Program-made: the position numbers and the translations under genes
Part shown: one piece after another, positions 5,648-47,443 of the stretch
Layout: each line of letters begins with the position of its first letter
How positions within the stretch are numbered: position 1 is the first letter of the stretch
The notes under the pieces: generated by a model
Databases searched by the model: none
What the model was told of the DNA's origin: nothing
Seen by the model: the letters and a program-made list of their open reading frames with translations, nothing else
NCBI GenBank assembly: GCA_029858565.1
Contig: JAOUEV010000023.1
Span: forward strand, 1 to 48,367
Reading direction: 5' to 3'
Source of the DNA: Nitrospirota bacterium
GTDB lineage: Bacteria > Nitrospirota > UBA9217
DNA: 48,367 nucleotides

Positions 5648-5734
5648 AATTCGGAATTCGGATCGCGGATCGCGGATTTGCAAAGGTTCATCCTTTCGCG
5701 TTCATTCCGCAATCCGCAATCTGCAATCCGCAAT
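5648..5734. repeat. Inverted pair of heptamer arrays (ATT/CGCGG x4 ... AATCCGC x4)
   Basis: aattcgg aattcgg atcgcgg atcgcgg ... attccgc aatccgc aatctgc aatccgc, about 25-nt spacer. Confidence 0.85.
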
Positions 5735-5736
5735 TG

Positions 5737-6165
5737 TTACAAACAGACGAACGGCGCTTTCCGTTCCTTGGACGCGAAGCGGGAATAATGAGGCGACGTG
5801 AAGATGTCCATGAGCATATGCCTGGTCACCACGCCCGCGTATTTTCCGTCCCTCGTGACCGTGACCATGGAACAGCAGCTCTGCATCAGGAGCCGCACCA
5901 GCTCGTCGGTCGACGCGGTGACGTCCGCTGTGACCGGCGCAGGCACCAGGACCTTTGACGCCGGAAGAACCGACAGGTCCAGGCCGTCGCGGATCGCTCC
6001 GAGGATCCCGTTCTCCGTCACCACGCCCAGCAGGTCGTTGCTGTCGTTCACCACCGGCATCGCGGCCAGGCCGCTGGAGATGATCCGCATCGCCGTCTCC
6101 TGCGCGGTCGTATCCGGTCCCACGCTGATCTTTTCCTTCATAATGTGCCACGCACTGATAGACAT
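5737..6165 (-). CDS. Tandem CBS-domain protein
   Basis: AMPVVNDSNDLLGVVTE and VTVTRDGKYAGVVTR CBS motifs; GGAGG SD. Confidence 0.85.
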   Translation of the reverse strand: MSISAWHIMKEKISVGPDTTAQETAMRIISSGLAAMPVVNDSNDLLGVVTENGILGAIRDGLDLSVLPASKVLVPAPVTADVTASTDELVRLLMQSCCSMVTVTRDGKYAGVVTRHMLMDIFTSPHYSRFASKERKAPFVCL

Positions 6166-6253
6166 TGAAACCTCCGGTAAAATTCATCTAGCATACGGCC
6201 GGTAGCAAGTTGCCGGGGAAATCAACCCCGCACTCCTGTCCCGGTCATGAACA

Positions 6254-6277
6254 ACTCCGCACTTCGCACTCCGCACT
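6254..6277. repeat. Heptamer array ACTCCGC x3
   Basis: actccgc acttcgc actccgc act just after the crotonase stop. Confidence 0.7.
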
Positions 6278-6281
6278 CTTC

Positions 6282-7022
6282 TTACATCCGTTCCCACTGC
6301 TTTGTATCGGGATTGAACGCTTCGCTGAAAGCGGTCACTTCTTCCTTCAGCCCGACCTCGTATCCCTCGGTCAGTCCATAGTTCACCAGCATCTTGATGG
6401 ACCGGAGGGAGCTCAGGCTGTTGTTCGCGATGCGGCTTGCCAGGCGCTCCGCTTCCTGGTCCAGGGCGTCCGCGGGCACCACCTTGTTCACCAGCCCGAT
6501 CCGCAGGGCCTCCTCGGCATCCACGGTCCTGGCGGTGAAGAGCAGCTCCTTTGCGCGCCCCACGCCCACGGTCTTGTACAGGCGCTGGGACGAGCCGAAG
6601 ATCGGCGGCAGGCCGAGCCGCGCCTCGGGGAACGAGAAGACCGCGTCGGACGACGCGATCCTGATGTCCGCTGCCAGCGCCAGGCCCAGTCCCGCGCCGG
6701 TCGTCTCGCCCTTGACCGCGGCGATCACCGGGACCGGCAGGTTCTCGATGTGCTTCAGCAGGCTGTAGCCCATGTCAGCGAAATGGCCCGCCTCGGCCTT
6801 GGTCATTTTGATGAAGCTCGCGTAGTCGATCCCTGCCGAGAAGTTCCGTCCCTTTGCCGTGAACAGCACCACCCGGAGCTCGGGATTTTCCCCGTGCACC
6901 TCGCTCACGGTCTTGTTCAGCCCGGCAAGGACCTCGCGGTCAAGATAGTTCATGGGCTGATTGTCGATCACCACCGTGCTGATCATATCCTTGCACGACG
7001 TACTGATCACTGTGTTTTTCAT
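6282..7022 (-). CDS. Enoyl-CoA hydratase/isomerase (crotonase) family protein
   Basis: FSAGID oxyanion motif, PVIAAVKG, GAGLGLALAADIRIAS, FPEARLG, GLVNKVV; AAAGGAG SD before MKNTV. Confidence 0.9.
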   Translation of the reverse strand: MKNTVISTSCKDMISTVVIDNQPMNYLDREVLAGLNKTVSEVHGENPELRVVLFTAKGRNFSAGIDYASFIKMTKAEAGHFADMGYSLLKHIENLPVPVIAAVKGETTGAGLGLALAADIRIASSDAVFSFPEARLGLPPIFGSSQRLYKTVGVGRAKELLFTARTVDAEEALRIGLVNKVVPADALDQEAERLASRIANNSLSSLRSIKMLVNYGLTEGYEVGLKEEVTAFSEAFNPDTKQWERM

Positions 7023-7051
7023 GATTGACTCCTTTACCATTCCACATCCCT

Positions 7052-7130
7052 CCTCACCTGCCCTCTGCCCAACAGGGAGAGGGCAGGGGTGAGGGGTGTT
7101 CGTTCCGCATTCCGAATTCCCCATTCCGCA
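7052..7130. repeat. REP-like hairpin plus TTCCGCA heptamer array
   Basis: cctcacctgccctctgccc-aaca-gggagagggcaggggtgagg hairpin (7052-7094); ttccgca ttccgaa ttcccca ttccgca (7103-7130). Confidence 0.8.
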
Positions 7131-10100
7131 TTAGGCGGTTTCCCAGTTCTTCTTCTCCACCATATAGTAGAACAACGGGATCACCACCAGGGTGAGGGCT
7201 GTTGATGCCAGCATCCCGAAGATGAGCGCCAGGGCAAGGCCCGACCAGACCGGGTCGGTCACGATCACGGCGGAGCCCAGGATGGCGGCGGCCGCGGTCA
7301 GCACGATCGGCCGGGTCCTGATGGCGCCTGCCTCGATCAGCGCCTGGACGAGCGGCAGGCCCTCGTGCTTCTTGTCCAGGATGAACTCGAGCAGCACGAT
7401 CGAGTTCCTGACCACGATGCCCGCCAGGGCGATCACGCCGATCATCGAGGTCGCGCTGAAGTACACGCCGGTCATGGCGAATCCCGGCATGATGCCGATC
7501 ATCGAGAGCGGGATGGCGGCCATGATCACCACCGGGATGGTGAAGGACCGGAAGCGTCCCACCAGCAGCAGGTAGATGGTGATGAGCGCGACGCCCATGG
7601 CCGCCCCGAGATCGCGGAACACGTCGAGCGTCAGCTTCATCTCGCCGTCCCACTTGATCCGGTAGCCCTCGGGCAGGGGGTGCTTCCAGAGATATTTCAT
7701 CATGTCCATGACCGCGTAGACCTGGCTCCGGTCGCCCATTTCGGCGAACACATAGGTCACGGGTTCGAGGTTCTTGTGGTGGATCGCCTTGTCCGTTTCC
7801 GACGCAGCGGCCCTGACGAGCGACGACAGCGGCACCTGGTTCCCCTGGGGACCGGCAACGTACACCTTGTCCAGGTCCGCGAGGCCTGCCCGCTCTGACT
7901 TGGGCAGGCGCAGGAATATGGATACCGGGTTCTTGGCCGCCGGCGTGTGCAGGGTCGAAACGGCCATGCCGCTGATCGACATGCGCAGGGTCTGGACGAT
8001 CTGCTCGGTCGAGATGCCCGCGAGCGCGGCCTTTTCCTTGTCAACGGTGAGCTGGTACTTGTCCTGGTCCTGCTTCACCGAGTCGTCAATGTCCACGACC
8101 TGGTCGGTCCGCTCAAAGAGCTTCCTGATGTCGGCCGCGATCTCCCGCTGCTTCCCGTAGTCCGGTCCGTAGATCTCCGCCACCACCGTGGCGCGGACCG
8201 GCGGCCCCGGCGGGTCCTCGACCAGCTTGATGTTCGCGTTGTACGCGGCCGCGAGCTTGGCGATGTCCGGCCGCATCTTGAGCACCAGCTTCTCGCTCGA
8301 GAGCTTCCGTTCTTCTTTGTCGATCAGGTTCACCCGCACATCGGCGAAGTGGCTTGCCTCGCGGAACGCTCCGCCCCGCAGCAGGCCGTTGAAATCGATC
8401 ACCGAGCCGGTGCCCACATAGGTCTCATAGTCCTTCACTTCCGGGATGGCGGCGAGGTACGCGCCCACGGCCCGGGCCACCCGGTCGGTGCTCTCGAGCG
8501 CCGTGCCCACGGGCATGTCGATCGAGACCAGGAAGGTGTTCTTGTTCGCCTTGGGCAGCATGCGGAACTTCACCCACTGCACCAGCGGGAAGACCATGGT
8601 GACCAGGAACACGCCGACCACGATGGCCATGAAGATCTTCCTTTTCGGCGCGCTTTCGAGCAGCGGACCGAGGATCTTCTTGTATGCCTTGTAGAGCTTT
8701 GTCTCCTCCAGCGGGACCTGCTGGGCCCCGTGGTCCTCGGTCCTCATCAGGCGATAGCTCGCCCAGGGAGTCACGATGAAGGCCACGAAGAGCGACGTGA
8801 CCATCGCGACCGGCACGTTGAAGGGAATCGGCATCATGTAGGGCCCCATCATCCCGGTGACGAAGGCCATGGGAATGAAGGCCAGCACCACGGTCAGGGT
8901 CGCCAGGATCGTGGGCATGCCGATCTCGTTCACCGCCAGGATCGCGCCCTGGAGCCGCGAATGCTGCTGCAGCTTGTAATGGCGGTGGATGTTCTCGACC
9001 ACCACGATGGCGTCGTCCACCAGGAGCCCCAGCGAAAGGATCAGCGCGAACAGCGTGATCCGGTTGATCGTCTGGCCGGCGACCATGCCGACCGCAAGGG
9101 TGATGAAGAGCGTCAGCGGGATGGCGAGCGCCACGATGGCCGCCTCGCGCCAGCCCAGGGTGAAGTAGAGCAGCACGATCACCACGATGATCGAGACCAC
9201 CAGGTGGAACACCAGTTCGTTCACCGCGTCGTTCGCGGTCTTGCCGTCGTTCCGCGTCACGGTCAGATCGATCCCCGGCGGGACCTGGGTCTTCTTGAGG
9301 TCATCGAGCTTCGCCAGGATCGCTTCCGAGATCTTGACCGCGTTCAGCTTCTGGCGCTTTGCCAGGGCAATGGTCACCGCCGGCACCTCGGTTCCCCGAT
9401 TTATTGCCGTTGTCGCTTTTCCGTCGCTTCCTGTCGCTTTACTGTCCGCTTTATGCTGTTCCGCCTTTCCAAAGGCAATGCGCGTCAAGCGCGAGGTCTC
9501 CTCGAACCCGTCGATCACCTCGGCAACGTCGCCCAGGTAGACCGGCTTCCCGTTCGCCACGCCGACAACAGCGTTCTTCACGTCAGCCGCGGTCGCGAAG
9601 AACCCGCCGGTCTCGACGGACAGTTTCTTGTTCCCCTGCTCCAACTCGCCTGATGCCAGGTTCGCGTTCGATGCCGTGATCGCGCCCGCGATCTGGAGCG
9701 GCGACAGGCCGTAGCCCGCGATCCGCAGAGGATCGAGCACCACCCGCACCTGGCGGCTCCTGCCGCCGATGACCACGGTGTTGCCCACGCCCGGCACCTT
9801 CCGGAGCTCGTCAAGCACATGGTCCGCCACGATCCGGAGCTGGCCGTCGTCGTAGGCGCCGCCCGGAGCGGGCGAAAGCGTCACCGCCACGATCGGCACG
9901 TCATCGACGTCAATGGGCTTTACCAGGGGCTGGGACGCTCCCGCGGGAGCGAAGTCCATGTTCGACATGAGCTTGTCGTAAAGCTTCACCAGCGACCGCT
10001 CCTTGTCCTGGCCCACCAGGAACTTCACGGTCACCACGGACATCGAGTTCATCGAGACCGAGTACACGTCCTCCACGCCCGGGATCTCCCAGAGCTTGGA

Positions 10101-10319: not shown

Positions 10320-10333
10320 GATTTCAACCTTTT

Positions 10334-10422
10334 TCTCGCGCCAAGCCGCAAAGACGCTAAGAAAGTCTTCACGTCGAGATCGTTTTTATCTTTACTTTGC
10401 GACTTTGCGTCTTTGCGAGAGA
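10334..10422. repeat. Inverted pair of octamer arrays (CGCAAAG ... CTTTGCG)
   Basis: tctcgcgccaagccgcaaagacgctaag ... ctttgcga ctttgcgt ctttgcga gaga. Confidence 0.85.
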
Positions 10423-10499
10423 CAGTTCTTTTTTGTGTAAGTATTTCGATTTCGCCGGCCGCTTCACGGTCGGTCCTTGTCGGTTCCTGCCGGTCTTTC

Positions 10500-10532
10500 C
10501 CCGCGTCACCGTGTCACCGTGTCACCGTGTCC
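10500..10532. repeat. Octamer array CACCGTGT x3-4 overlapping the MFP 3' end
   Basis: ccccgcgt caccgtgt caccgtgt caccgtgt cc; encodes the MFP tail GHGDTVTR*. Confidence 0.8.
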
Positions 10533-11614: not shown

Positions 11615-11685
11615 CTTGCCGCTTGTCGGCCCTTGCCGGTTCTTTTCGATTTTTGTCGGTTCTCGTCGCTTCTTGTCCGCTTTAT
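11615..11685. repeat. Degenerate ~10-mer array (TT[C/T]TGTCG[G/C]T-like)
   Basis: cttgccgct tgtcggcc cttgccggt tcttttcgat ttttgtcggt tctcgtcgct tcttgtccgc; related arrays at ~10451-10500 and 9410-9465. Confidence 0.6.
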
Positions 11686-14793: not shown

Positions 14794-14805
14794 GGCTGGA
14801 ATAGT

Positions 14806-14941
14806 GACGAGCGACAAGAGACCAGCGACGAGAAAGATCTGAGCGTCTTTCGGTTTCTACCTGTCGCCATGATAGTAGAACCTGCACGTTATCTTTTGCT
14901 CAAACCTGGTCTCTAGTCTCTCGTCGCTCGTCTCTTGTCTC
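14806..14941. repeat. Inverted pair of heptamer arrays (GACGAGC/A ... T/GCTCGTC)
   Basis: gacgagc gacaaga gaccagc gacgaga ... tctcgtc gctcgtc tcttgtc; right arm forms the AlkD-like C-terminus RDKRRATRD. Confidence 0.8.
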
Positions 14942-15635
14942 TGTTCAAATACTTTTTCCGCTTCCTTTCCGGGAACCGCTCGATGGCGTAGCGCAGCGCG
15001 GTGCGCGGCATGGCGCGGTGATGCTTTCGCAGGAAACCTTCCAGCACAGCGACGTCCCGCTTACCCACCTCACGCAGCATCCAGCCCACTGCCTTGTGCA
15101 TCAGATCATGCTCGTCGGCAAGCAGCTTTTCCGAAAGCGCCAGCGTGTCAGCGAAATCGTTTTGCCTGATGAAATGGAAGGTCGCGATGATCGCGATCCG
15201 CCGCTCCCAGAGGCTCGTCGAACGCGCGAACCGGTACAGCAGCGCACGGGACCCGCCGTCCAGATGGGCCCCGACGATCTTGGACGCGCTCAGGTCCACC
15301 AGGTCCCAGTTGTTGATGTACCGCGTGTTCCGGAGATAGAGCGCGCAGACCTTGTTCCTCAGAGCGTCGCTGCCGCGCTCGTACTGGTCCACCAGGATCA
15401 GGAGCGCCAGCAGCCGGTCCTCGTGCCACGCCGACCGCAGGAGCTTCGCGACCTCGGCAAGGGGCGTGTCGCGGAATTCCTTCATCACCTTCCGGATGTC
15501 CGGCACCACCACGCCGAGAAAGCGGTCACCTTCTCCGTACTGGCCCGGTCCGGTCTTGAAGAACCGCTGCAGGATGACAGCCTTTTCCCCGGCGGCAAAA
15601 GCGCGAAGACGTTTCTGGATAACAGAAGAGGTCAT
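14913..15635 (-). CDS. alkD: DNA alkylation repair protein (AlkD-like)
   Basis: FFKTGPGQYGEGDRFLGV, INNWDLVD, LWERR, KAVGWMLRE, MPRTALRYAIE. Confidence 0.88.
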   Translation of the reverse strand: MTSSVIQKRLRAFAAGEKAVILQRFFKTGPGQYGEGDRFLGVVVPDIRKVMKEFRDTPLAEVAKLLRSAWHEDRLLALLILVDQYERGSDALRNKVCALYLRNTRYINNWDLVDLSASKIVGAHLDGGSRALLYRFARSTSLWERRIAIIATFHFIRQNDFADTLALSEKLLADEHDLMHKAVGWMLREVGKRDVAVLEGFLRKHHRAMPRTALRYAIERFPERKRKKYLNRDKRRATRD

Positions 15636-15730: not shown

Positions 15731-18208
15731 TCAGCGGGGCAGCGAAGGCGCGGGAATATCCCGCACGATCCCCGCGGGATCATAGGGCAGCACAGTGATC
15801 TCCCGGTCCTTCACCACCAGCAGCAGGTTGTTCCTGGCAGCCAGATCGATGAGCACTTTGTTCCAGGCGCCGGTGGCCCTGAGCGTCAGTGCCCGGTCCA
15901 TGCCCGCGACCGCGTTGATCCTGTAGCCGTCCTGGAACGCCGGCGACGCCAGCCGCTTGATCACCTCTCCCAGTCTGCTTTTCGCGGCCTTGATAGCGAT
16001 GGTCTTCCCGTTCATGAGGGTCAGCGCCGGCGGCGGGAAGATACTTTCAGGATCCGCTCCGCGCTGGAGCAGCAGATTTGCCGCTTCCACGCTGCCCGCG
16101 GCACACGCTCTGCCCAGGGCGGTGCTCCCGTTCGCCGCCACGGCATTGACCGGCACGCCAAGGTCCAGGAGCGTCCGGGCCGCGGCCAGATGTCCATGCT
16201 GCACAGCCTCCATGAGCGGGGTCACGCCGTCAGGCAGCGCTGTCCGGAGACCGGCGCCTTTTTGCGCGAGCAGGGCGATGAGCTTCGCCTGGCCGCCCGC
16301 GGCCGCGGACCGCAGGGCGAAATCGCCGCTCCAGTCCAGGGCATTCGGATCAGCCCCACGGTCGATGAGCATCTCCGCGATCTCGGTCCTTCCCCGGGCG
16401 GCCGCCAGAAGCAGCGGCGTCCTCCCGGCCGCGTTCCTGCTGTTCACGTCCGCGCCCTTCTCCAGCAGGATGCGGATAATTGCCACATGCTCTTCCTTCA
16501 GGTTCGGCACGTCCACCGCCGCCTGGAGCGCGGTCGCGCCGGTCTCGGACGCCAGGGACAGGTGGTTCACCGCGGCGCCGCGCTCCACCAGCGACCGCAC
16601 GATCCTCTCCCGCCCCTGCCGTGCCGCGAGCATCAGCGCCGTGTTCCCCTTGGCGTCAGTCTGATCCAGCGCCTCTTTGCTCAGGTCCAGCAGCTTGGTA
16701 TACAGCCGGTCGTGGCCCAGCTCGCTGGCGATCATGAGAGCGGTCCGTCCCTGCCCGTTCACCGCCTCGGGATTCACGCCGGCCCTCAGGAACAGGTCCA
16801 CGGCATCCTCATTGTTCTTAGCCACTTCATCCAGGAACGCGGCATCGGTGAACTGCATGCCCTGCTGCACCACCTTTTTTGCGTAGTACCAGTGAAGAAG
16901 CTGCTCCTTGTAGACCAGCAGCGCTCCGGCCAGCAGCACCAGAAGGAGCGCCGCGGCGATCGCGCTGATGACCCAGGGATTCACCTCGGTAACGGCTGCG
17001 GTCTGCGGCTGTGACTGCGGCCTCTTCTCAGGCTTCTCTTTGGCCTTCTCAACAGCATCTGCCGCTTCCGGAGCAGCGGCAGATGGCTGAAGCTGTGGCT
17101 GTGACTGCGGCTGTATCTGTGGCTGCGGCTGCAATTGCGGCCTCTTCTCAGGCTTCTCTTCGGCCTTCTCAACAGCAGCCGCCGCTTCCGGGGCAGCGGC
17201 AGCCGGCTGCGAAGCAACGCTGACCGTGCTGAGCATGACCGACCCGGCGCTCTGCCCATCTGCCCGTTTTTTTACCCCCAGGTCCTCGTGCGCCTTTCGC
17301 TTCGCGCGGAGCACCTGCATGTCCAGAAAGGGCAGCGGCTCGAACTGCGCCAGATAACTGCCGGCACGGCTCTGCAGCACCAGTGCAGCCACATCGACCA
17401 GCACTCCGCAGACAAGACCGATCACGCCCCCCCACCCGGCGGATCCGAAGATCAGGCCGAAGAGCAGCCCTGCCGGCAGCAGGGCCGCTGGCGGCGCCCA
17501 CCAGAAGCGGAAGGCCCCGTCGATCGTTTCGAGCAGTTTCTTCTGCTTGAACGGCAGCCCCTCCGGCGTGTTCAGGAAGGCGGTCCATTCCGCAGCGTCG
17601 GCCTGCAGTGCCTGCAAGTGCTTCTTGATGTATTTGGCGACCTCGCCATGCCCTGATTCTTCGGCCAGTTGCAGCGCGGTCTTTTTCGAGACCGTGAGCG
17701 CGTTGACATCGACCCCCGAGTGCAGCAGGTACTCGACGATGTCGGTGCCGGCCTGATCAAATGCCGCCTTGTGCAGGGCCGTCCATTCGTCCGGGTCCTT
17801 CGCGTTCACATTCGCGCCGGCCTGGATCAGCGTTTCGGCAAGATCGCGCCGGCCGGCCGATGCGGCGATGAACAGAGGAGTACTTCCGTCTCGGGTCACG
17901 TTCGCGTTGACGCCTTCGGCGATGAGCTTCTTGACCGTTTCCAGGTCGCCAGCCTCGAGCGCTTCGCGGAACTGGGGCCATTTCTGCGCAGTGACCGAGG
18001 TCTGTCCGGGAATGTATTTTGACTTGGCTTTGGGCTGGGGTTGAGGCTTGGTCTTCGGCTTGATCTTGGGCTGTGCGCCGGGAGCGCCAGGAACATGGGC
18101 AGCAGGAGCAGGGGCGGCTACGGGATCTTCGGGAACGTCAAGGGTGATCGGGTCGTCCTGCCCGACCTTCGGCTCGATCTCAGGCTGGTCTTGCGTTTCG
18201 TTTTCCAT
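15731..18208 (-). CDS. Multi-domain ankyrin-repeat membrane protein
   Basis: N-terminal ankyrins (GSTPLFIAA, WTALHKAA), 2 TMs, P/Q/A linker, third TM, about 7-8 further ankyrins (GRTALMIA, GNTALMLAA, GRTPLLLAA...), C-terminal ~75-aa domain; GGGGAG SD before MENET. Confidence 0.85.
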   Translation of the reverse strand: MENETQDQPEIEPKVGQDDPITLDVPEDPVAAPAPAAHVPGAPGAQPKIKPKTKPQPQPKAKSKYIPGQTSVTAQKWPQFREALEAGDLETVKKLIAEGVNANVTRDGSTPLFIAASAGRRDLAETLIQAGANVNAKDPDEWTALHKAAFDQAGTDIVEYLLHSGVDVNALTVSKKTALQLAEESGHGEVAKYIKKHLQALQADAAEWTAFLNTPEGLPFKQKKLLETIDGAFRFWWAPPAALLPAGLLFGLIFGSAGWGGVIGLVCGVLVDVAALVLQSRAGSYLAQFEPLPFLDMQVLRAKRKAHEDLGVKKRADGQSAGSVMLSTVSVASQPAAAAPEAAAAVEKAEEKPEKRPQLQPQPQIQPQSQPQLQPSAAAPEAADAVEKAKEKPEKRPQSQPQTAAVTEVNPWVISAIAAALLLVLLAGALLVYKEQLLHWYYAKKVVQQGMQFTDAAFLDEVAKNNEDAVDLFLRAGVNPEAVNGQGRTALMIASELGHDRLYTKLLDLSKEALDQTDAKGNTALMLAARQGRERIVRSLVERGAAVNHLSLASETGATALQAAVDVPNLKEEHVAIIRILLEKGADVNSRNAAGRTPLLLAAARGRTEIAEMLIDRGADPNALDWSGDFALRSAAAGGQAKLIALLAQKGAGLRTALPDGVTPLMEAVQHGHLAAARTLLDLGVPVNAVAANGSTALGRACAAGSVEAANLLLQRGADPESIFPPPALTLMNGKTIAIKAAKSRLGEVIKRLASPAFQDGYRINAVAGMDRALTLRATGAWNKVLIDLAARNNLLLVVKDREITVLPYDPAGIVRDIPAPSLPR
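17016..17202. repeat. Intragenic ~65-bp direct repeat, 120-bp period
   Basis: tgcggcctcttctcaggcttctct...ccgcttccgg..cagcggcag at ~17016 and ~17136; encodes AAAPEAA..VEKA.EKPEKRPQ twice. Confidence 0.85.
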
Positions 18209-18349
18209 GCAGGGCTCCCCTTGCATAGCCGGTGCGTACGCATAACTATACCATGAACCGGGTACTGCTTCAACCGCCACTATTGGGGCCGGGAACGATC
18301 AGCGGCTGCCCGGGATTATTCCAGTATTATCACCGCGGCATGCCGCCGC

Positions 18350-30274: not shown

Positions 30275-30368
30275 GATCCGCAGATCGCGCGGATTTTCAC
30301 AGATCATAGATCCAACTCGCCTGTTGGTTTATGAGGCAATCTGCGTCCATCTGCGCAATCTGCGGATC
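30275..30368. repeat. Inverted pair of nonamer arrays with perfect 11-bp ends
   Basis: GATCCGCAGAT...ATCTGCGGATC termini; atctgcg repeated three times in the right arm. Confidence 0.85.
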
Positions 30369-31198: not shown

Positions 31199-31293
31199 TC
31201 TCGCACAAAGCCACGAAGAGCACGAAGAACTGCGCAGGATTCTTGAATCGAGAAGCACGCCTAACCTTCGTGATTTTGTGCCTTCGTGAGAGA
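31199..31293. repeat. Inverted pair of 8/9-mer arrays (CACGAAG ... CTTCGTG)
   Basis: tctcgcacaaagccacgaagagcacgaag ... cttcgtgattttgtgccttcgtgagaga. Confidence 0.85.
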
Positions 31294-33674: not shown

Positions 33675-33822
33675 AAAGACGGGCTATGAGAACAACAAGG
33701 GCTAGATGAATCAGGGCTAGAGGGATAAGCCGGGAATCAGAGATGCGTTGCAACAGGATTTCTGATCGCGCCTCTCCTTGCTCCTTGCATCTTACCCCTT
33801 ACCTCTTACCCCTTACACCTTC
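33675..33822. repeat. AGGGCTA-type array plus CTTACCC heptamer array
   Basis: gggctatgag, aacaagggcta, cagggctag; cttaccc cttacct cttaccc cttacac; complementary TAGCCCT motifs at ~32700-32760. Confidence 0.65.
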
Positions 33823-37459: not shown

Positions 37460-37882
37460 GTGGATACACTATCAAAATCGGAAAGAAGTAAAAGAATGTC
37501 CCTCATCAAAGGTAGGGACACAAAACCTGAGCTTATAGTTCGACGTTTAATATTTAGCTTAGGCTATCGTTACCGATTGCATCGGAGAGATTTACCTGGT
37601 AAACCAGATATAGCATTCCCATCCAAATCCAAAGCAATCTTCATACACGGATGCTTCTGGCATCGTCATCGCCGAGCAAGCTGCAAGTTAGCAAGACTGC
37701 CGAAATCAAAATTGGATTTTTGGCTCCCCAAATTGTCGAGCAACGAACTTCGAGACAAGACCAAACAAACGGCTTTACGCCGTCTCGGCTGGAAAGTACT
37801 GGTCATTTGGGAATGTGAATTGGCCAACGTGAATAAATTAATAAATAAAATAGTCGACTTTCTTAATCAGGAGAAAAAATGA
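37460..37882 (+). CDS. vsr: Very short patch repair endonuclease
   Basis: MSLIKGRDTKPE, LPGKPD, FIHGCFWH, FW..K...N..RD, GWKVLVIWEC; GTG start; ATGA overlap with the MTase. Confidence 0.95.
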   Translation: MDTLSKSERSKRMSLIKGRDTKPELIVRRLIFSLGYRYRLHRRDLPGKPDIAFPSKSKAIFIHGCFWHRHRRASCKLARLPKSKLDFWLPKLSSNELRDKTKQTALRRLGWKVLVIWECELANVNKLINKIVDFLNQEKK

Positions 37883-39093
37883 GATCAGTGGAACTCTTCG
37901 CCGGTGCCGGCGGACTTGGCATGGGTATAAGTCTCGCTGGTTTTGAGCATGCTGCGGTCGTGGAATGGGACAAGTGGTCCTGCGACACGATTCGCGAAAA
38001 TCAAGCAAGAGGCTATCCCCTTGTGTCGGATTGGGCGCTTACGGAAACAGACGTAAGATCTTTTGACTTTTCACGAATTCCAGAGGGAATAGATTTGGTT
38101 GCTGGCGGTCCGCCATGTCAGCCCTTTTCGATGGGAGGAAAACACAAAGCATACTTTGACGATCGAGACATGTTTCCTACAACTATTGATGTTATTCGCA
38201 GATTAAGACCACGCGCATTCATTATTGAAAACGTAAAGGGCCTGACGCGGCCATCATTCGCCAATTATTATCAATATATCCTACTGCAATTGGAATTCCC
38301 CGAAGTCTCGAAACGCAAGAATGAAGATTGGCAGGATCATTATCGACGTTTGCAGTCCGAAAAAACTAGCGGTCGTCTTCATAACGGCGGTCATCTGGCC
38401 TACAACGTCGTCCCCACACTCGTTAACGCCGCAGACTATGGTATTCCCCAAAAACGAGAGCGTGTTTTCATTGTTGGCTTCCGCGATAATCAAGGCATAC
38501 AATGGAGCTTCCCAAGAGAAACGCACGGATTGGACGCGTTACTATTCGATCAGTGGGTAACGGGACACTACTGGGATAGACATGAAATATCAAAACGAAG
38601 GCGCGCTTCCCTCCCATTGGTTTACGAAAAACGTATCAAGCGACTGCGTGAAGTTGACGCTCCCAAGCTACAGCCTTGGCGAACCGTGCGCGATGCCTTA
38701 ATAGGGTTACCCAACCCCGAGAAAATATCTGAAACGGTCTATTTTAATCACCGTTTTCAATCAGGGGCTAAGTCATATCCTGGCCACACAGGCAGCCACC
38801 TGGACCTACCCGCGAAGACACTAAAAGCTGGCGATCATGGCGTGCCCGGCGGCGAAAATATGATGATTAAGGACAATGGCGAGTTCAGATACTTTACCGT
38901 TCGGGAGTCTGCACGCATTCAAACCTTCCCGGATGGATATGTATTCCATGGCACATGGACCGAATCGATGCGCCAACTCGGCAATGCTGTACCCGTTGCC
39001 TTAGCGCAAATCGTTGCGACCAGCGTGGTTGCGAAACTTGTCGAAAGTCAGACAGATATATTCCTCCAGCAATTTACAGGAGCATCCAATTGA
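37879..39093 (+). CDS. DNA (cytosine-5)-methyltransferase of a type II R-M system
   Basis: Motif I FAGAGG, IV GGPPCQPFS, VI ENVKG, VIII QKRERVF, X QLGNAVP; TRD YPGHTGS...PAKTLKAGDHGVPGGEN. Confidence 0.96.
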   Translation: MRSVELFAGAGGLGMGISLAGFEHAAVVEWDKWSCDTIRENQARGYPLVSDWALTETDVRSFDFSRIPEGIDLVAGGPPCQPFSMGGKHKAYFDDRDMFPTTIDVIRRLRPRAFIIENVKGLTRPSFANYYQYILLQLEFPEVSKRKNEDWQDHYRRLQSEKTSGRLHNGGHLAYNVVPTLVNAADYGIPQKRERVFIVGFRDNQGIQWSFPRETHGLDALLFDQWVTGHYWDRHEISKRRRASLPLVYEKRIKRLREVDAPKLQPWRTVRDALIGLPNPEKISETVYFNHRFQSGAKSYPGHTGSHLDLPAKTLKAGDHGVPGGENMMIKDNGEFRYFTVRESARIQTFPDGYVFHGTWTESMRQLGNAVPVALAQIVATSVVAKLVESQTDIFLQQFTGASN

Positions 39094-39743
39094 GCTTGCA
39101 GAAACCATATAATCCCTTAGACAAGAAGAACCTTGGAGTATCTGTCGCGGAAGCGTTGCTGTCAAGGGATATCCTACCACTTAGCTCGCTTAAACCGTTT
39201 AATGGGGCGGGTGTTTATGTTATTTATTATACGGGTAATTTCGAGAGCTATCGCCTGATTTCGAAATTAAACAAACAGGGCAAGTTTCAAGCACCCATTT
39301 ATGTTGGCAAAGCCGTTCCGCCCGGCGCGCGGAAAGGTGGTTTCAACACCAGTGAGATGAAAACCAAGGCGCTGCATAATCGACTTATTGAGCACGCGGA
39401 AAGCATAAAGGTTGCCGATAATTTGAAAATTGAAGATTTTCATTGCCGTTTTTTGGTCGTTGATGATATTTGGATTCCACTAGGTGAATCACTGCTAATT
39501 GCAAAGTTTTCGCCGTTATGGAACAAGCTTATAGACGGCTTTGGAAACCACGATCCCGGCAAAGGAAGATATGAAGGGCTTTGTTCGCGTTGGGATGTCT
39601 TACATCCTGGCAGGAGTTGGGCCACCAAATGTCGCCAGCGTTCCGAGACAATCGTGCAAATAAAAAATGATATAGAAGAGTATTATCGAGCCCACCCGCT
39701 ACTTGCCAAAGGCATATTTCATCTACCTGTCGATGAAGAATAG
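39090..39743 (+). CDS. Eco29kI-family GIY-YIG type II restriction endonuclease
   Basis: YNPLD, GAGVYVIYY, PIYVGKA, RL.EH, WIPLGESLLI, PLWN, DGFGNHDPG, WDVLHPGR; TTG start with AGGAG SD, TTGA overlap with the MTase stop. Confidence 0.92.
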   Translation: MSLQKPYNPLDKKNLGVSVAEALLSRDILPLSSLKPFNGAGVYVIYYTGNFESYRLISKLNKQGKFQAPIYVGKAVPPGARKGGFNTSEMKTKALHNRLIEHAESIKVADNLKIEDFHCRFLVVDDIWIPLGESLLIAKFSPLWNKLIDGFGNHDPGKGRYEGLCSRWDVLHPGRSWATKCRQRSETIVQIKNDIEEYYRAHPLLAKGIFHLPVDEE

Positions 39744-39782
39744 CTGAACTCTTCTCTCCTCAACACGCACATCTTTCCTATC

Positions 39783-40298
39783 TTACCACCTCTCCTTATG
39801 CACCCGGCCGGGATCGAAGCGGTCCGCGTGGTCCGGTAATTTCAGCTCACCAGGATAGCCGATCGGAACGAGCGAAAGGGGAATGATGTGCTCCGGAAGG
39901 TTCAGCAGCTTCCGCATGCCTGCGACCCGGTCTTCCGTGGGATAGATCCCTGTCCAGACAGCTCCGAGGCCTTTGGCCGTTGCCGCGAGCAGCAGGTTCT
40001 CGGTTGCGGCAGAGCAGTCCTGCACCCAGTAACCCTTATGCTTTTCCTTGGTAGGATCTCCGCACACCAGGATCGCCACGGATGCGTGCTTCAGCATGGC
40101 CGAATAGGGATGGAACTTCGGGATCGCGTCGAGCAACTCCCGTTCGGTGATCACGATGAAATGCCAGGGCTGCTCATTGCCCGCCGACGGAGCCGCCATT
40201 GCAGCGCGCAGCAGTTCCGTGACCAGGGATCCGGGGACCGGTTTCGGCGTGTATACTCTGATGCTCCTGCGTGAAAAGATCGCTTCCATGGTATCCAT
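39783..40298 (-). CDS. Nitroreductase family protein
   Basis: RRSIRVY, APSAGNEQPWHF, DCSAATENLLLAA..KGLGAVW, VPIGYP. Confidence 0.93.
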   Translation of the reverse strand: MDTMEAIFSRRSIRVYTPKPVPGSLVTELLRAAMAAPSAGNEQPWHFIVITERELLDAIPKFHPYSAMLKHASVAILVCGDPTKEKHKGYWVQDCSAATENLLLAATAKGLGAVWTGIYPTEDRVAGMRKLLNLPEHIIPLSLVPIGYPGELKLPDHADRFDPGRVHKERW

Positions 40299-40345: not shown

Positions 40346-40396
40346 TTCGACAGGATTACAGGATAAGGGCTCTGCTGAATCCTGTTGTTCCTGTTC
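40346..40396. repeat. Inverted octamer arrays (ACAGGAT ... ATCCTGT)
   Basis: gacaggattacaggat ... aatcctgttgttcctgtt. Confidence 0.7.
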
Positions 40397-41385: not shown

Positions 41386-41606
41386 TTTTTCACTCCGCAG
41401 ATGTATGACATGGAAATCCCGGCAAAGATCCTCTTTCAGGATCAATGCGATGTTGGTAAATCAATTATAGCAGGAATGGGGGCAGGAAGGATTCGTCTGA
41501 ACTGTTGAATGCGAATTGAGGCAGCACCGCTTGCCTGTGCGCTTATGTTCTTCCCTGGTCTTGCTTACCGCTGTTTCATCTAGACCTTACCGCTTTACAC
41601 CTTTAT

Positions 41607-42251: not shown

Positions 42252-42288
42252 GTCAGCCTAAATAAAAATGAACTACGATACGTGCTTT

Positions 42289-42527
42289 CTGACAGGATAT
42301 CAGGATCAACAGGATTATAACAGCTTTTATCCGAGAAACGGCGGTTGGCCACTTGTGAACACAGGTAAATTCAGATAAAGCCGGACGAAACCCCAAGTAT
42401 AGAAATTTACCCTAAGGGTGATTCTCGAACTCAGCGTACGTTATTCAAGATCCGTGTCAATCCGTGAACATCCGTGGCAAATTGCGCGTTCTCGGCTTAT
42501 CCGTCGTTATCCTGCAATCCTGTCAAA
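42289..42527. repeat. Nested repeat element between Rieske and cyt b6
   Basis: Outer arms gacaggat atcaggat caacaggat ... atcctg caatcctgtc; inner atccgtg x3 at ~42450-42477. Confidence 0.75.
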
Positions 42528-42581
42528 ACTCTTTGCTTCTGCTGTGTCCGAACTGAGTAGCTTATTCTGCGATCAGCAATT

Positions 42582-43077: not shown

Positions 43078-43112
43078 GAAAAGAAAAGCCGCCGGATATT
43101 TATCCAGCGGCT
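43078..43112 (-). terminator. Rho-independent terminator after ppnP
   Basis: Minus strand AGCCGCTGGATA-AA-TATCCGGCGGCT followed by TTTCTTTT. Confidence 0.75.
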
Positions 43113-43139
43113 CTTGTTAAATGTTCTGCTTCGCCCTTC

Positions 43140-43454: not shown

Positions 43455-43510
43455 GGGTAACTCCTCGAAAAAAGGATTAATTAAAGGATCAGAGGATTAC
43501 CGACTCGCGC

Positions 43511-43615
43511 CTAATCCTGCGTCACCTGATCCCGCCGTATCTAATCCTGCAGTATCTAATCCTGCCGTATCTAATCCTGCCGTATCTAATCCTGCCGTAT
43601 CTAATCCTGCCTTAT
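43511..43615. repeat. 15-bp tandem repeat CTAATCCTGCCGTAT x7
   Basis: Units start at 43511, 43526, 43541, 43556, 43571, 43586, 43601; the last overlaps the ettA stop. Confidence 0.95.
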
Positions 43616-45294
43616 CTTGTAAGGTGCCTATACTTGATCCGGTGCGGCTGGTCTGCCTCGGCGCCGAGCCGTTTCTTCCGGTCTTCCTCGTACTCCGTGA
43701 AGTTGCCGTCAAAGAACGCCACCTTGCTTTCGCCTTCAAAGGCGAGAATGTGCGTGGCAATACGGTCAAGGAACCACCGGTCGTGGGAGATCACCACGGC
43801 GCAGCCGGCGAAGTTCTCAAGACCTTCTTCCAGAGCGCGCATGGTGTTCACGTCGATGTCGTTCGTGGGCTCGTCCAGGAGCAGCACGTTCGCCTCTTCC
43901 TTCAGGATCCGCGCGAGGTGCACCCGGTTCCGTTCGCCGCCCGAGAGCACGCCCACCTTCTTCTGCTGGTCCGTGCCGCCGAAGTTGAACCGCGACACAT
44001 AGGCCCGGGAGTTCATCAGGAGCTTGCCGAGCTGGACCTGCTCCTGGCCGCCGGTGATCACTTCCCAGATGGTCTTGTTCGGATCGAGCACGTCGCGGCT
44101 CTGGTCCACGTAGGCGAGCTTCACCGTGTCGCCGATCCGGATCGTTCCCTTGTCCGGCTTGTCCTGTCCCGTGATCATGCGGAAGAGCGTGGTCTTGCCC
44201 GCGCCGTTCGGACCGATGACGCCCACGATGCCGCCGGGAGGCAGCATGAAGCTCATGCCCTCGACCAGGATGTTGTCGCCGAAGGCCTTGGTCACGTTGT
44301 CCGCCTCGATCACGATCTTGCCGAGCCGGGGACCCGGCGGAATGTAGATCTCCAGCTCCTTGCCGCGCGCCTCGGTCTGCTGCCGGAGCAGTTCTTCGTA
44401 GGAGCTGATGCGCGCCTTGGACTTGGCGTGCCGTCCTTTGGGGGACATCCTGATCCATTCGAGCTCGCGGGCCAGCGTCTTCTGGCGTTCGCTCTCGGCC
44501 TTTTCCTCCTGCTTCAGGCGGTTGCCCTTTTGCTCGAGCCAGGAGGAATAGTTCCCCTTCCAGGGGATGCCCTGGCCGCGATCAAGCTCCAGGATCCAGC
44601 CAGCCACGTTGTCCAGGAAGTAGCGGTCGTGGGTCACGGCGATCACCGTGCCCTCGTAGCGCTGGAGATGGTGCTCAAGCCAGGCAACGGACTCGGCGTC
44701 CAGGTGGTTCGTGGGTTCATCGAGCAGCAGGATATCGGGCGTCTGGAGCAGCAGGCGGCAGAGCGCCACGCGCCGCTTCTCGCCTCCCGAAAGGTTCTTG
44801 ACCGGCGTGTCGCCCGGCGGACAGCGCAGAGCGTCCATGGCCATCTCGAGCCTGCTGTCCAGTTCCCAGGCGTTCAGGTGGTCCAGCTTTTCCTGCACCT
44901 TGCCCTGGCGCTCGATGAGCTTGTTCATCTCGTCGTCGGACATGGGATTGGCAAAACTTTCATTGATCTTGTTGTACTCGGCCAGAAGGTCCACCGTCTC
45001 CTGCACGCCTTCTTCCACGCACTGACGCACGGTCTTCTCCGGATCAAGCTTCGGCTCCTGCTCCAGGAACCCCACAGTGTAGCCCGGGGACAGGACCGCC
45101 TCGCCCTGGAACTCCTTGTCAACACCCGCCATGATCCTGAGCAGGGAGCTCTTGCCCGAACCGTTCAGGCCCAGCACGCCGATCTTGGCGCCGTAGAAAT
45201 AGGACAGGTAGATGTCCTTCAGCACGGGCTTCTTGTCGTGGAGCTTGCCCACGCCGACCATGGAATAGATGATCTTGTTCGCTTCCGCTGCCAT
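43612..45294 (-). CDS. ettA: Energy-dependent translational throttle ABC-F protein
   Basis: [59 protein letters not shown]. Confidence 0.96.
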
Positions 45295-45483
45295 AAAGGG
45301 GAAACCTCCGATACAAAGTTAGGCACCTTTGTACACTTCTCAAGAGCCGGGTGTCAAGACCAAACTCGTGCGCTGCTGACAGGACCGGAGCGAGAAAACT
45401 GTTGTTCAGCCTGATCGGACTGTGCTATAGTGGGCGGCAACGGACGGCCGCTGCATGCTGAATTCATGATGAGCGAGGACGGA

Positions 45484-46341
45484 TTGAAAAGACATTTTCT
45501 CTTTATTGGCGCAGCTTCCATTCTCACACTTGCCAGCCTGTCGGTTGCCGAAGCAGTTCCCCATAACCGGGTCCCCGCCAAGGCAGCCGTGGTCATGGAC
45601 GCCGGGGGAACGGTGCTCTTTTCCAAGTTCCCCAACGCCAAGCTCGCGCCGGCAAGCACGGTAAAGCTCGTGACCGCCATGGTGGTCCTCGACCGCCTGG
45701 CCCCGGAAACGAAGGTGACGATCAGCCAGAAGGCGAGCAGGGTGCGCACCATCCCCCCGCGGCTCTGCCCCGAGGAAGAGCTCACGGTCTCGGACCTGCT
45801 CCATCTGGCGCTCATGAAATCCATCAACTCCGCTGCCGTGGCCCTGGCCGAGGCAGCGGCAGGCACGGAAGACGAGTTCGCCGCGCTCATGAACATCAAG
45901 GCAAAGGAGATCGGCGCGAACACCACGCTCTTTGCCAACGCCTCGGGCCTGCCCAAAGGGAAGCAGTACACCACGGCGAACGACCTGGCGCTCATCATGA
46001 AGGCCGCCCTTGCCTATCCCCTCATCCGCGAGATCCTTGGCAGGAAGGAAGCGCTGATCAGAACGGCCGCGGGCCGTGACATCCTGGTGGACAGCTCGAA
46101 CGATCTCCTGTGGTACGATCAGAACATGATCGGCGGCAAGACCGGGTATACGGGAAATGCGCGGCACTGCTTTGTCTGCGCGATCAATACGGACCGAGGG
46201 CCGCTCATCACCGCGGTGCTCGGCGCACGTTCGCGGCGCGGTCTCTGGAAGAGCACGCTCATGCTGAACGAGATGGTCCTGAGGCCGGAGCTCGCTTTTC
46301 TGAAGGTCAGGTCCGGCCTTGCTCCTGCCGTTTCCCACTAG
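45484..46341 (+). CDS. D-alanyl-D-alanine carboxypeptidase/endopeptidase (peptidase S11)
   Basis: PASTVK (SxxK), SIN (SxN), GKTG; signal peptide; start TTG 45484 (GAGGA SD) or ATG 45466. Confidence 0.92.
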   Translation: MKRHFLFIGAASILTLASLSVAEAVPHNRVPAKAAVVMDAGGTVLFSKFPNAKLAPASTVKLVTAMVVLDRLAPETKVTISQKASRVRTIPPRLCPEEELTVSDLLHLALMKSINSAAVALAEAAAGTEDEFAALMNIKAKEIGANTTLFANASGLPKGKQYTTANDLALIMKAALAYPLIREILGRKEALIRTAAGRDILVDSSNDLLWYDQNMIGGKTGYTGNARHCFVCAINTDRGPLITAVLGARSRRGLWKSTLMLNEMVLRPELAFLKVRSGLAPAVSH

Positions 46342-46384
46342 GCCGGCATCTTCACTTCACGCGGCCGCAGCAGGCAGACCACTC

Positions 46385-47323
46385 ATGACCTCGCCATCAT
46401 TACCCGGATCAGCAGCACCCTCCTTGAACAACGGCTATACCTACCGGGAACAGCTCGGACCGGCCGCGGACTCCCTCACGCTGCTGGACTATCTCGTCAG
46501 AAACTACCGCCACTCCACGGAGACCACATGGCTGGAACACATTGCCTCGGGCCGCGTGCTCATTGACGGCATGCCTGTTCCCGCGGACACGCTCCTGCGC
46601 CGGGGATCGGAACTGGTATGGAAACGGCCGCCCTGGATCGAACCTGCTGCGCCCAGGTCCTTTGCCGTGCTCTTTGAGGACGAGGACCTGCTTGCCGTGG
46701 CAAAACCCGCCGGCCTGCCCACGCTTCCCGGCGGCAATTTCCTGCAGGGAACGCTGCTCCATCTGGTGCGCGAGCGAGCGCCTGAAGCGTCTCCGCTCCA
46801 CCGGCTGGGGCGCTGGACATCGGGCCTCCTGTTGTTCGCAAAGAACCCTCGTGCCGGCGCCGGGCTGACCCGGCAATGGTCGGAAAAGAAGGTCGGCAAG
46901 CGCTATCGCGCCCTTGCCAGCGGACTGCCCGGACTGGATGCCTTTGCGATCGAGACGCCCATCGGCCCGGTCCCTCATCAGCTGCTCGGTTCGGTCCACG
47001 CGGCATCGGCAACCGGCAGGCCCTCGCTCTCCCGGGTGATCGTTCTTGAACAACGGGGCGATTGTTTTCTCTGCGACGTGCATATTGCCACGGGCCGGCC
47101 CCACCAGATCCGCATCCATCTTGCCTCCGCAGGCCACCCCCTGGTGGGCGATCCGCTCTATGGGCCGGGCGGCATTCCCCTGCAGGGCTCGGCCGCGCTG
47201 CCCGGGGACCCGGGGTATCTGCTCCATGCCGCCGAACTCCGCTTTCGCCATCCCACAACCGGCCGCGAAATGACCCTCCAGTCCGAACCGCCGATGGCTC
47301 TGCGTCCTTCAACGGGTAAATAA
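46385..47323 (+). CDS. RluA-family pseudouridine synthase-like protein with an HRLG motif
   Basis: S4-like N-terminus, AKPAGLPT, HRLGRWTSG, KRYRAL, TGRPHQIRIHLA, PLVGDPLY, LHA. Confidence 0.88.
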   Translation: MTSPSLPGSAAPSLNNGYTYREQLGPAADSLTLLDYLVRNYRHSTETTWLEHIASGRVLIDGMPVPADTLLRRGSELVWKRPPWIEPAAPRSFAVLFEDEDLLAVAKPAGLPTLPGGNFLQGTLLHLVRERAPEASPLHRLGRWTSGLLLFAKNPRAGAGLTRQWSEKKVGKRYRALASGLPGLDAFAIETPIGPVPHQLLGSVHAASATGRPSLSRVIVLEQRGDCFLCDVHIATGRPHQIRIHLASAGHPLVGDPLYGPGGIPLQGSAALPGDPGYLLHAAELRFRHPTTGREMTLQSEPPMALRPSTGK

Positions 47324-47338
47324 AAGCGAAACAGTTAT

Positions 47339-47443
47339 AACCACGGGCGGCTTCGCCGCACACTGATGACGTCAACACCGCATTCCTGTTTTCTTCGTTC
47401 CTGCCTTCATCCGTGTGTCCCGGCGCAGTCGGGACCCGTGGTT
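47339..47443. repeat. MITE-like inverted-repeat element
   Basis: AACCACGGG...CCCGTGGTT termini, inner cacactgatga/tcatccgtgtg arms, small hairpins in both arms. Confidence 0.7.

Follow-up and report, generated by a model that had tools for sequence, protein, structure and literature searches.

The 48,367-nucleotide stretch analyzed here (the window) is contig JAOUEV010000023.1 of a Nitrospirota bacterium (GCA_029858565.1), which corresponds to contig C46 of G000, an assembly of 3.92 Mb in 144 contigs. The genes bordering the sites described here are of the ordinary housekeeping kind, including those of an RND efflux operon, DHFR, ThiF, a P-type ATPase and Rieske/cytochrome b, and many of the junctions between them are occupied by short tandem arrays, often as an arm that faces its reverse complement across a loop. 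A preliminary description of the window, made from the letters alone, had listed eight inverted pairs and six single arms and had taken them for emptied, non-autonomous copies of a poorly characterised mobile or RNA-structure system inserting at gene ends. Our analysis of the window, the remainder of the genome and its relatives suggests that these elements are a hairpin cassette devoid of its gene; copies located in other parts of the genome enclose a PF13366 or PF05635 gene.

Arrays and hairpins in the window

The window sites were read by eye and scanned with Tandem Repeats Finder, retaining arrays of period 7-10 with at least 2.7 copies and merging overlapping calls. The window contained 15 such arrays, whereas 30 local shuffles averaged 0.57 and never gave more than 2, in agreement with the high density noticed at first. 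Direct reading and the scan together confirmed 12 of the 14 sites listed previously. Six of the eight inverted pairs were clear array-armed hairpins, and the five of these that were folded whole (all except 42287-42528) gave RNA folds with z-scores between -3.4 and -6.6 with respect to 200 shuffles per site. The other two pairs held up less well, since the one at 40346-40396 was weak (z -1.8, with an equally good fold in 11 of the 200 shuffles) and the arms of the one at 47339-47443 were not short-period arrays. Five of the six single arms were also real, the exception being 41560-41606, which is not tandem and consists of two CTTACCGCT words 23 nt apart without any Tandem Repeats Finder call. 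Rfam gave no match at gathering threshold anywhere in the window and, as previously stated, no mobilising gene is recognisable in it.

Genome-wide distribution and anatomy of the elements

The same kind of array was found throughout the genome, with a total of 562 arrays of period 7-10 in 3.9 Mb. Arrays with at least three copies numbered 285 for period 7, against 8 in a local shuffle and 6 in an order-4 Markov control, and 90 for period 8, against 7 and 8, respectively, so that their frequency is far from that of shuffled sequence. Period-7/8 arrays were mainly intergenic (278, compared with 145 in called coding sequence, which makes up 83% of the genome). Gene calls were crude, being the longest open reading frames (ORFs) scored by codon usage (3244 ORFs), and for this reason the distances to start codons given below are upper bounds. 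Array length was narrow, about 24-33 nt irrespective of the period, with medians of 30 nt for 7-mers (interquartile range 26-32), 24 nt for 8-mers, 26 nt for 9-mers and 29 nt for 10-mers; 90% of the 7-mer arrays were at most 33 nt long and few arrays exceeded 36 nt. Heptamer words were mostly TGCGGAN and octamers mostly CGCAAAGN and CACGAAGN, and further families were built on GACGAGA, ACCCCTT and CAGGATNN; at least ten word families exist together in one genome. These families chain by single substitutions, and single linkage collected them into three large clusters (101, 93 and 68 of 349). Additionally, 202 of the 359 intergenic period-7/8 arrays were free of stop codons in all six frames, compared with 343 of 1792 length-matched random intergenic pieces.

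The words differ and the architecture recurs, both in the window and in the genome at large, as first proposed. Each arm consists of 3-5 direct tandem copies of one word, 7-10 nt long, and pairing takes place between arms located 8-130 nt apart. Paired arms had a median length of 25.5 nt and were 89% complementary, with perfect complementarity in only 3 of 52 pairs, and the two arms of a pair agree in the variable position of their word. The G-rich or purine-rich arm came first in 46 of 51 adjacent inverted pairs (3-150 nt between arms; p 2e-9); three of the five exceptions were ties and the other two spanned tRNA genes. As an inverted repeat reads alike on both strands, this polarity is a property of the element and not of the direction of transcription. 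In contrast to the arms, the loops were locus-specific: 31 of 36 had no second match in the genome, and the five second matches were trivial (tRNA genes, contig-end duplicates or a 41-nt partial match).

Placement also followed a clear pattern. In co-directional gaps, single arrays that are G-rich on the sense strand began a median of 6 nt past the upstream stop codon, and single C-rich arrays ended upstream of the next ORF start, at a median distance of 27 nt. Divergent and convergent intergenic regions also contained arrays, 49 of about 490 placed. Among 102 arrays lying at least 150 nt inside strong ORFs, 87 had in-frame coding signal on both sides, and 63 of these were of period 7, 8 or 10. 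Furthermore, in a seven-gene tRNA cluster (C14:127946-129306, L016) most spacers contained a heptamer array or a pair of them, often in the order G-rich arm, C-rich arm. Insertion at gene ends, as originally suggested, is thus too narrow a description, because arrays are also found deep inside genes and between tRNA genes; the elements occupy insertion-tolerant places, namely the gaps from stop codon to ribosome-binding site, tRNA spacers and in-frame protein loops. A pseudopilin-like operon (C115:23778-24938, L017) was also found to carry a TGCGGAN hairpin at several consecutive gene junctions, with a PF13366 cassette (C115:27786-28124) located 3 kb downstream of them.

Association with PF13366 and PF05635 genes

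The preliminary description had mentioned similar arrays flanking small four-helix-bundle, GxxExxY or DUF559 genes in related anaerobes. This genome has seven PF13366 (PDDEXK_3, GxxExxY, nuclease-like) genes and five PF05635 (23S rRNA intervening-sequence protein, four-helix-bundle) genes above cut-off, and all 12 were flanked by arms of like kind and polarity, each with a different word. The association thus holds here for two of the three families, whereas DUF559 (PF04480) had no match in this genome. The layout was arm-gene-arm-loop-arm or hairpin-gene-hairpin at 3 of the 12 loci. Moreover, 298 of the 562 arrays matched a cargo-arm word with at most one mismatch, compared with a mean of 44 and a maximum of 172 for letter-shuffled seeds.

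Cargo-bearing and gene-less copies share more than their words. The CGCAAAG family comprises 16 gene-less copies with near-identical TCTCGCGCAAAG...GCGCGAGA ends and loops that do not align, and one PF13366 copy of this family has identical TCTCGCG...CGCGAGA ends. The window elements at 10334 (CGCAAAGN) and 31199 (CACGAAGN) use words common to the arms of the cassettes C142:57083 and C100:32813, and the first of them ends in TCTCGC...GCGCGAGA, near-identical to the ends of the cargo-bearing copy. Decaying cargo was also detected: this genome has a single partial PF05635 gene, and its relatives have many matches that are incomplete or interrupted by stops. A cargo gene is absent from all window elements, every PF13366 and PF05635 match being on another contig, and the window copies are the gene-less form of the PF13366/PF05635 hairpin cassette. 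We found no paper in the literature linking such arrays to PF13366 or PF05635 cassettes.

Array density was also compared with cargo content in 14 relatives, sampling 40-60 kb of each. Four or more period-7/8 arrays were found only in G012, G009 and G030, besides G000 itself, and all of them have cargo genes. This association across genomes is only weak, because the samples are small and the genomes related.

Persistence and turnover at orthologous sites

The two junctions around the RND gene were compared in twelve genomes of the family, and most of them had arrays or hairpins there, with words that differ. Plain short spacers were found at both junctions in one genome (G015), and another had GC-rich hairpins instead. 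The hairpin between the membrane-fusion and RND genes (10334-10422) has homologues in four other genera, and the alignment of the five genera contained 22 predicted pairs, four of them with compensatory changes. All three units have a G-C pair replaced by A-U, and the two genomes concerned are the same every time. The elements of the five genera at this junction have a common origin. In G009 (locus L005), the place upstream of the RND gene where other genomes carry an array hairpin is occupied by two GC-rich hairpins resembling repetitive extragenic palindromic (REP) sequences, GGGGCAACCC...GGTTGCCC and GGGCGGCC...GGCCGCCC, suggesting that different repeat families compete for one junction.

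Similar persistence was observed within coding sequence. The protein CbiD contains in-frame arrays at the same four loops in six genomes of two families, and no arrays in three more distant orthologues. The word varies with the lineage, being TGCGGAG in G000, TGCGGAT in G003, TTCGGAA/TTCAGAG in G009 and AAGGGTC in the second family, and those at positions 3 and 4 of G003 complement each other perfectly. Likewise, a syntenic PF13366 cassette has CACAGAG in G000 and CACGGAG in G001, changed in both arms. In a wider set of 47 PF13366 loci (40 from relatives and 7 from G000), an inverted match scoring at least 11 was present at 37, and the upstream arm had a recognisable purine-form word at 34 of these 37. 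Arm words were clustered on the PF13366 protein tree (16 changes, against 24.1 when shuffled, with none of 200 shuffles as low). Flanking genes were shared in 19 of 29 cassette pairs at 65% identity or more, so that this clustering mostly reflects common descent and does not establish specificity. Resident elements thus persist over genus divergence, while the words drift, with concerted change across all units of the two arms.

Gain and loss were detected at the junction downstream of the CBS-domain gene. Contigs of a related population (run X2) join position 5626 to 5737 through 28-30 other letters, without the 110-nt element, and together with G015 they provide the empty sites that the preliminary description had anticipated in relatives. 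A metagenome scan yielded 59 loci with a CBS orthologue, of which 48 were examined and 15 had the same downstream gene by pattern match. Spacers at these 15 loci ranged from 13 to 154 nt, the long ones being array hairpins that start right past the stop codon, and the empty spacers of close relatives measured 13-49 nt. On a tree of the CBS protein (the 15 loci and the window, 16 rows), hairpin and empty states needed four changes, of which branches with good support force at least three. The state differs within two sister pairs that are also well supported (L116/L117 and L091/L094), and in them the element fills exactly the interval from stop codon to Shine-Dalgarno sequence. These elements are therefore gained and lost at the DNA level, although rarely. 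At six of the metagenome loci (L086, L087, L089, L109, L111 and L114) only the final ~25 codons of the YgaP-like gene are present, directly after the hairpin, and it looks as if arrival or turnover of the element had removed the 5' two thirds of that gene.

Maintenance of the arms and alternative explanations

Selection on the sense RNA is expected to give an excess of G-U pairs over the antisense strand. Sense folds contained 106 G-U pairs and antisense folds 92 (p 0.36), and the minimum free energy was lower on the sense strand in 24 elements and on the antisense strand in 16 (p 0.35), so that neither test gave any sign of an RNA-specific constraint. Three RNA runs yielded just short contigs of relatives, which carry neither transcript ends nor strand. 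Only the arms, and not the loops, repeat genome-wide, and the transcribed strand is not preferred, from which we infer a strand-symmetric maintenance at the DNA level. All these data suggest, with a probability of roughly 0.55 in our estimation, that the elements are old, genome-wide palindromic repeats, the gene-less form of a cassette resembling an intervening sequence (IVS), whose arms are kept complementary by a strand-symmetric process acting on DNA. Template switching within quasi-palindromes is established for bacteria, and the arm length is close to the shortest homology used by bacterial recombination; arms could accordingly be matched by switching within the quasi-palindrome and by gene conversion between arrays long enough to recombine. 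Once transcribed, elements may fold into stems of 20-30 bp that would punctuate operon and tRNA precursor transcripts, by analogy with the 23S rRNA IVS excised by RNase III.

Several observations weigh against this explanation. No partner was detected within 400 nt (score above the 99th percentile of the control) for 370 of the 562 arrays, which makes it possible that the basic unit is something other than the hairpin. Single arrays were more often G-rich than C-rich on the sense strand (135 versus 67 intergenic, 82 versus 46 intragenic), a 2:1 bias that a purely strand-symmetric process does not predict. In the second family (G019 and G028), the CbiD arrays at positions 1, 3 and 4 are direct and not inverted. 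The compensatory changes could equally result from selection on an RNA stem. Target-site duplications were absent (1 of 52 at k=2, with 3.8 expected, none at k=3 and 1 of 52 at k=4), and in the absence of shared loops the spread of the elements is deduced and not seen. In addition, CBS orthologues of the metagenome scan reached at most 71% identity over their full length, and no recent insertion with exact boundaries was caught among them. Five relatives (G014, G008, G015, G026 and G025) have cargo genes and at most one period-7/8 array in the sampled sequence. Lastly, the presence of two unrelated cargo folds in one architecture argues against recognition of the arms by the cargo protein. The preliminary description was hence right in kind, these being gene-less relatives of a poorly described cassette for which cargo-bearing, decaying and empty alleles all exist, and too confident about mobility, given the missing target-site duplications, the locus-specific loops and the synteny of most close cassette pairs.

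Of the alternatives considered, the one that we regard as least unlikely attributes the stems to selection by the host on RNA: intercistronic stems would be cut by RNase III, or would stabilise upstream messages, separating cistrons and tRNA precursors like the RNase III sites of phage T7, and cargo genes would merely exploit them. RNase III needs roughly two helical turns, which the arm length of ~24-33 nt would suit, and the placement right past stop codons, before ribosome-binding sites and in tRNA spacers, the stable folds of five of the eight listed pairs and the compensatory changes at orthologous sites all fit such a role. So does the 23S IVS of Coxiella with its PF05635 ORF, reported to be excised by RNase III (PMC4990558). 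The lack of a sense-strand preference in G-U over A-C pairs or in fold stability tells against it, as do the two thirds of arrays that are unpaired, the 63 arrays inside coding sequence, where cleavage would destroy the message, those in divergent and convergent regions, and the close relatives that manage with short empty spacers. A somewhat more doubtful proposal is that the cargo proteins themselves maintain and spread the word families, one protein for each family, in a partnership of nuclease and repeat, or of four-helix bundle and repeat, that needs no transposase and in which break repair writes the arms. The PF13366 protein would then recognise three phased CRCRRAK words and the PF05635 proteins other words, such as TGCGGAG or GACGAGA; a cut at an arm would be followed by templated repair from another copy, which would homogenise arms genome-wide and write new arms beside breaks, within genes included. 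The constant polarity, with the G-rich strand running 5' to 3' inward from both sides, would be a trace left by synthesis that starts at both 3' ends of the break.

It is also conceivable, at clearly longer odds, that replication slippage alone produces the heptamer and octamer runs as simple-sequence repeats, without a dedicated system and with incidental inverted pairs, in the way described for many prokaryotes. Among long simple-sequence repeats, heptanucleotides form the most frequent class in most genomes, with slippage as the proposed cause (Mrazek et al. 2007, as summarised in PMC4679880), the majority of our arrays are single, and the unit families are linked by single substitutions. 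Free slippage would give a long tail of copy numbers, whereas here copy number is tightly bounded; nor does it account for a pair polarity of 46 to 5, arms that agree in their variable position, ends conserved beyond the repeat, the constant association with two gene families or the fact that different families of the phylum carry arrays in the same loops of a protein. The least probable explanation, in our view, is that the arrays are binding sites of a nucleoid-associated or global regulator similar to IHF/HU. It was proposed for Geobacter metallireducens, where opposite-strand pairs of 3-5 tandem 7-9-nt repeats occur and our CACGGAGA corresponds, in reverse complement, to the class 2 word TCTCCGTS, as given in the passages on these repeats (PMC2700814). 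A single regulator is difficult to reconcile with ten or more word families in one genome, with arrays in coding sequence and between tRNA genes, with words that change among relatives at one site while the architecture stays, and with a period of 7-8 bp that is out of phase with the DNA helix.

The co-change of both arms at sites fixed over genus divergence offers a clean natural case of concerted palindrome evolution, which can help to separate DNA-level correction from RNA-level selection. A large part of the genome's non-coding sequence consists of these elements, which extend into coding sequence as well and so shape operon junctions, tRNA precursors and protein loops. They also matter for annotation, because ORFs are easily over-extended across stop-free arrays and short-read assemblies break in arrays.

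Individual features of the window

The individual sites are collected in Table 1. Regarding the element at 5648-5734, the contigs of the source run end within the array at 5707-5730, where records 1 and 2 overlap and nowhere else. The array at 43511-43617 is the longest of the window, with 89% matches; on the mRNA strand each of its units contains CAGGATTA, a word of one arm family, together with a GGA motif. The ACCACGG...CCGTGGT ends of the inverted repeat at 47339-47443 were also found in one unit family, and this repeat may be a degenerate member of the family. The arrays at 33774-33821 had no clear partner arm and their fold was not significant.

Table 1. Array and hairpin sites of the window, followed by two cargo genes on other contigs (contig named before the position)
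Position	Strand	Feature	Repeat units	Location	Fold and remarks
5648-5734	-	hairpin	mRNA strand: 5' (GCGGATT)x4 at 5706-5734, 3' ATCCGCG/AATTCCG units at 5648-5677; units also read as TCCGCAA and CGGATCG/AATTCGG	between CBS-domain gene stop (5737) and YgaP-like gene start (5626)	-40.5 kcal/mol, z -6.1
6254-6278	-	single G-rich array	GCGGAGT x3.6 (mRNA strand)	3 nt past enoyl-CoA hydratase stop (6282)	
7048-7096	-	C-rich/G-rich heptamer hairpin		follows the 7103-7132 array	z -3.4 for the region 7048-7132; 3' arm contains the Shine-Dalgarno sequence of the next gene
7103-7132	-	single array	TGCGGAA x4.3	begins at RND gene stop codon	
9411-9453	-	in-frame 10/11-mer array	AAGCGACNGN x3	within AcrB-type RND gene	absent from the preliminary list; variable loop, 6-16 residues longer than in 11 orthologues
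10334-10422	-	hairpin	CGCAAAGN arms	between membrane-fusion gene and RND gene	z -3.4
10469-10531	-	two G-rich arrays (mRNA strand)	TGACACGG x3.9 and a 10-mer x2.7		TGACACGG array provides the stop codon of the membrane-fusion gene
11615-11682	-	degenerate 10/20-mer array		outer-membrane factor gene stop (11685) to membrane-fusion gene start (11585)	
14803-14947	-	hairpin	GACGAGA/GACAAGA	5' arm covers final codons and stop of DNA-alkylation-repair gene; 3' arm stops before DHFR gene	30-nt arms, 83% complementary; z -6.2
30275-30368	-	hairpin	9-mer GCAGATNGC	between ThiF-family gene and MFS transporter gene	30-nt arms, 80% complementary; z -6.6
31199-31293	-	hairpin	CACGAAGN arms, TCTCGC...GAGAGA ends	between LPG-synthase-C-like gene and ThiF-family gene	z -3.5
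33774-33821	+	single C-rich arrays	CTCCTTG x2.1, CTTACCC x4.4	end 12 nt upstream of P-type ATPase start	
40346-40396	-	short weak hairpin	ACAGGAT	between epimerase and nitroreductase genes	
42287-42528	-	array pair	ACAGGATN	Rieske / cytochrome b junction	20-nt arms, 85% complementary, 202 nt apart
42450-42479		inner decamer array of 42287-42528	ATCCGTGNNN x3		
43511-43617	-	15-mer x7.1 array	ATACGGCAGGATTAG (mRNA strand)	past ABC-F gene stop, between ABC-F gene and Ppnp gene	absent from the preliminary list
47339-47443	+	imperfect inverted repeat	ACCACGG...CCGTGGT ends		z -3.35
C142:57083-57433		PF13366 gene	arm word CGCAAAGC		
C93:8506-8799		PF05635 gene	arm word TGCGGAG		

Two other features of the window were observed. 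A low-GC island at 37460-39743 (GC 0.485 in 38001-40000, compared with ~0.6 in the surrounding sequence) carries genes for a Vsr mismatch endonuclease, a C-5 cytosine DNA methylase and an Eco29kI-family restriction endonuclease, and looks like a type II restriction-modification unit with a Vsr companion. In addition, positions 15731-18280 encode an 849-residue protein made mostly of ankyrin repeats, an uncommon type of protein in bacteria that live freely.

Comparison with known systems

The REP/BIME (bacterial interspersed mosaic element) and REPIN (REP doublet forming a hairpin) systems, which are associated with RAYT transposases, consist of short extragenic palindromic repeats that number in the hundreds and occur singly or as inverted doublets. 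The elements described here resemble them in their hundreds of copies, the lack of target duplications and family-specific sequences, and differ from their palindromic units in that an arm is a non-palindromic tandem array and the loops are unconserved. The genome has 12 matches to Y1_Tnp (PF01797); the ten examined have inverted repeats of their own, of GGGTCAGGTC type and others, and only two of them lie within 1.5 kb of a period 7-10 array. In these two cases a 10-mer x3 array (C72:2608-2638 and C138:22702-22730) abuts the terminal inverted repeat of the Y1-transposase element. The elements do not fit a REP/REPIN-RAYT system, none of the ten examined genes being flanked by the arrays on both sides and the arms not being palindromic, nor do they fit miniature inverted-repeat transposable elements, in view of the missing target-site duplications and shared internal sequence. 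Rickettsia palindromic elements, of ~100-150 bp with a conserved internal sequence, lie in frame in genes and are tolerated in surface loops. The presence of palindromic repeats in frame inside coding genes is common to both cases, whereas here only the 24-33-nt arms recur and words differ by lineage. As for integrons, which came into question only on account of the position of the elements past stop codons, reading the window arms by eye revealed no GTTRRRY-type core of attC sites, no search aimed at an integrase having been made. The arrays do belong to the class of long simple-sequence repeats, with 5-11-nt units beyond chance, a purely descriptive category that leaves pairing, polarity and cargo unaccounted for.

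Other short repeats share some of these properties. The TAACTGA repeats of Beggiatoaceae, cyanobacteria and Bacteroidetes, reported as 169 direct sets and one inverted (MacGregor 2015, PMC4679880), are also heptamer runs of 2-6 copies, mostly intergenic near start codons and with a patchy spread; unlike our elements, they consist of one word, are almost only direct and, in the relevant passages of that paper, are not reported with cargo genes. Ssn GIY-YIG nucleases and their NTS/SRM repeats (Chenal et al. 2025, PMC11893778) likewise combine a small nuclease gene family with hundreds of cognate short repeats. According to the sections on these nucleases, a defined single sequence is cut as single-stranded DNA, whereas here the nuclease fold is different and the repeats comprise many words.

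The closest description in print that we encountered is that of the paired tandem repeats of Geobacter metallireducens (classes 1-3), with elements of four heptamers within and between genes, interpreted as IHF/HU binding sites (Aklujkar et al. 2009, PMC2700814). As in our genome, 3-5 tandem words of 7-9 nt form opposite-strand pairs at variable distance, tens of copies per genome lie between and within genes, and one word, that of class 2, is complementary to one of ours. Insertion sequences occur there at a fixed distance from some sites, and here the 10-mer arrays abut two of ten Y1-transposase elements. The passages on these repeats make no link to PF13366 or PF05635, to polarity, to compensatory changes or to persistence at orthologous sites. 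Our analysis contributes a census of the whole genome, the polarity of the pairs, the constant array length, in-frame copies at protein loops that are conserved and the arm co-change at orthologous sites, as well as negative results on target duplications, loops and sense-strand pairing.

Finally, the closest functional analogue is the 23S rRNA IVS with its PF05635 ORF. The window elements do not belong to this class, as there is no rRNA in the window and they lie at mRNA junctions. In Coxiella burnetii the IVS is described as a selfish element, acquired horizontally and then inherited vertically, with a decaying S23p/PF05635 ORF and excised by RNase III (PMC4990558). Both systems place a small PF05635 gene within a long stem. 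The Coxiella element occupies rRNA helices, whereas ours occupy mRNA junctions, tRNA spacers and coding loops, most copies are gene-less, the arms are tandem arrays and a second, unrelated cargo, PF13366, is present. The elements of this genome thereby connect the Geobacter 'global regulator sites', the 23S rRNA intervening sequences and the widespread families of small proteins PF13366 and PF05635.

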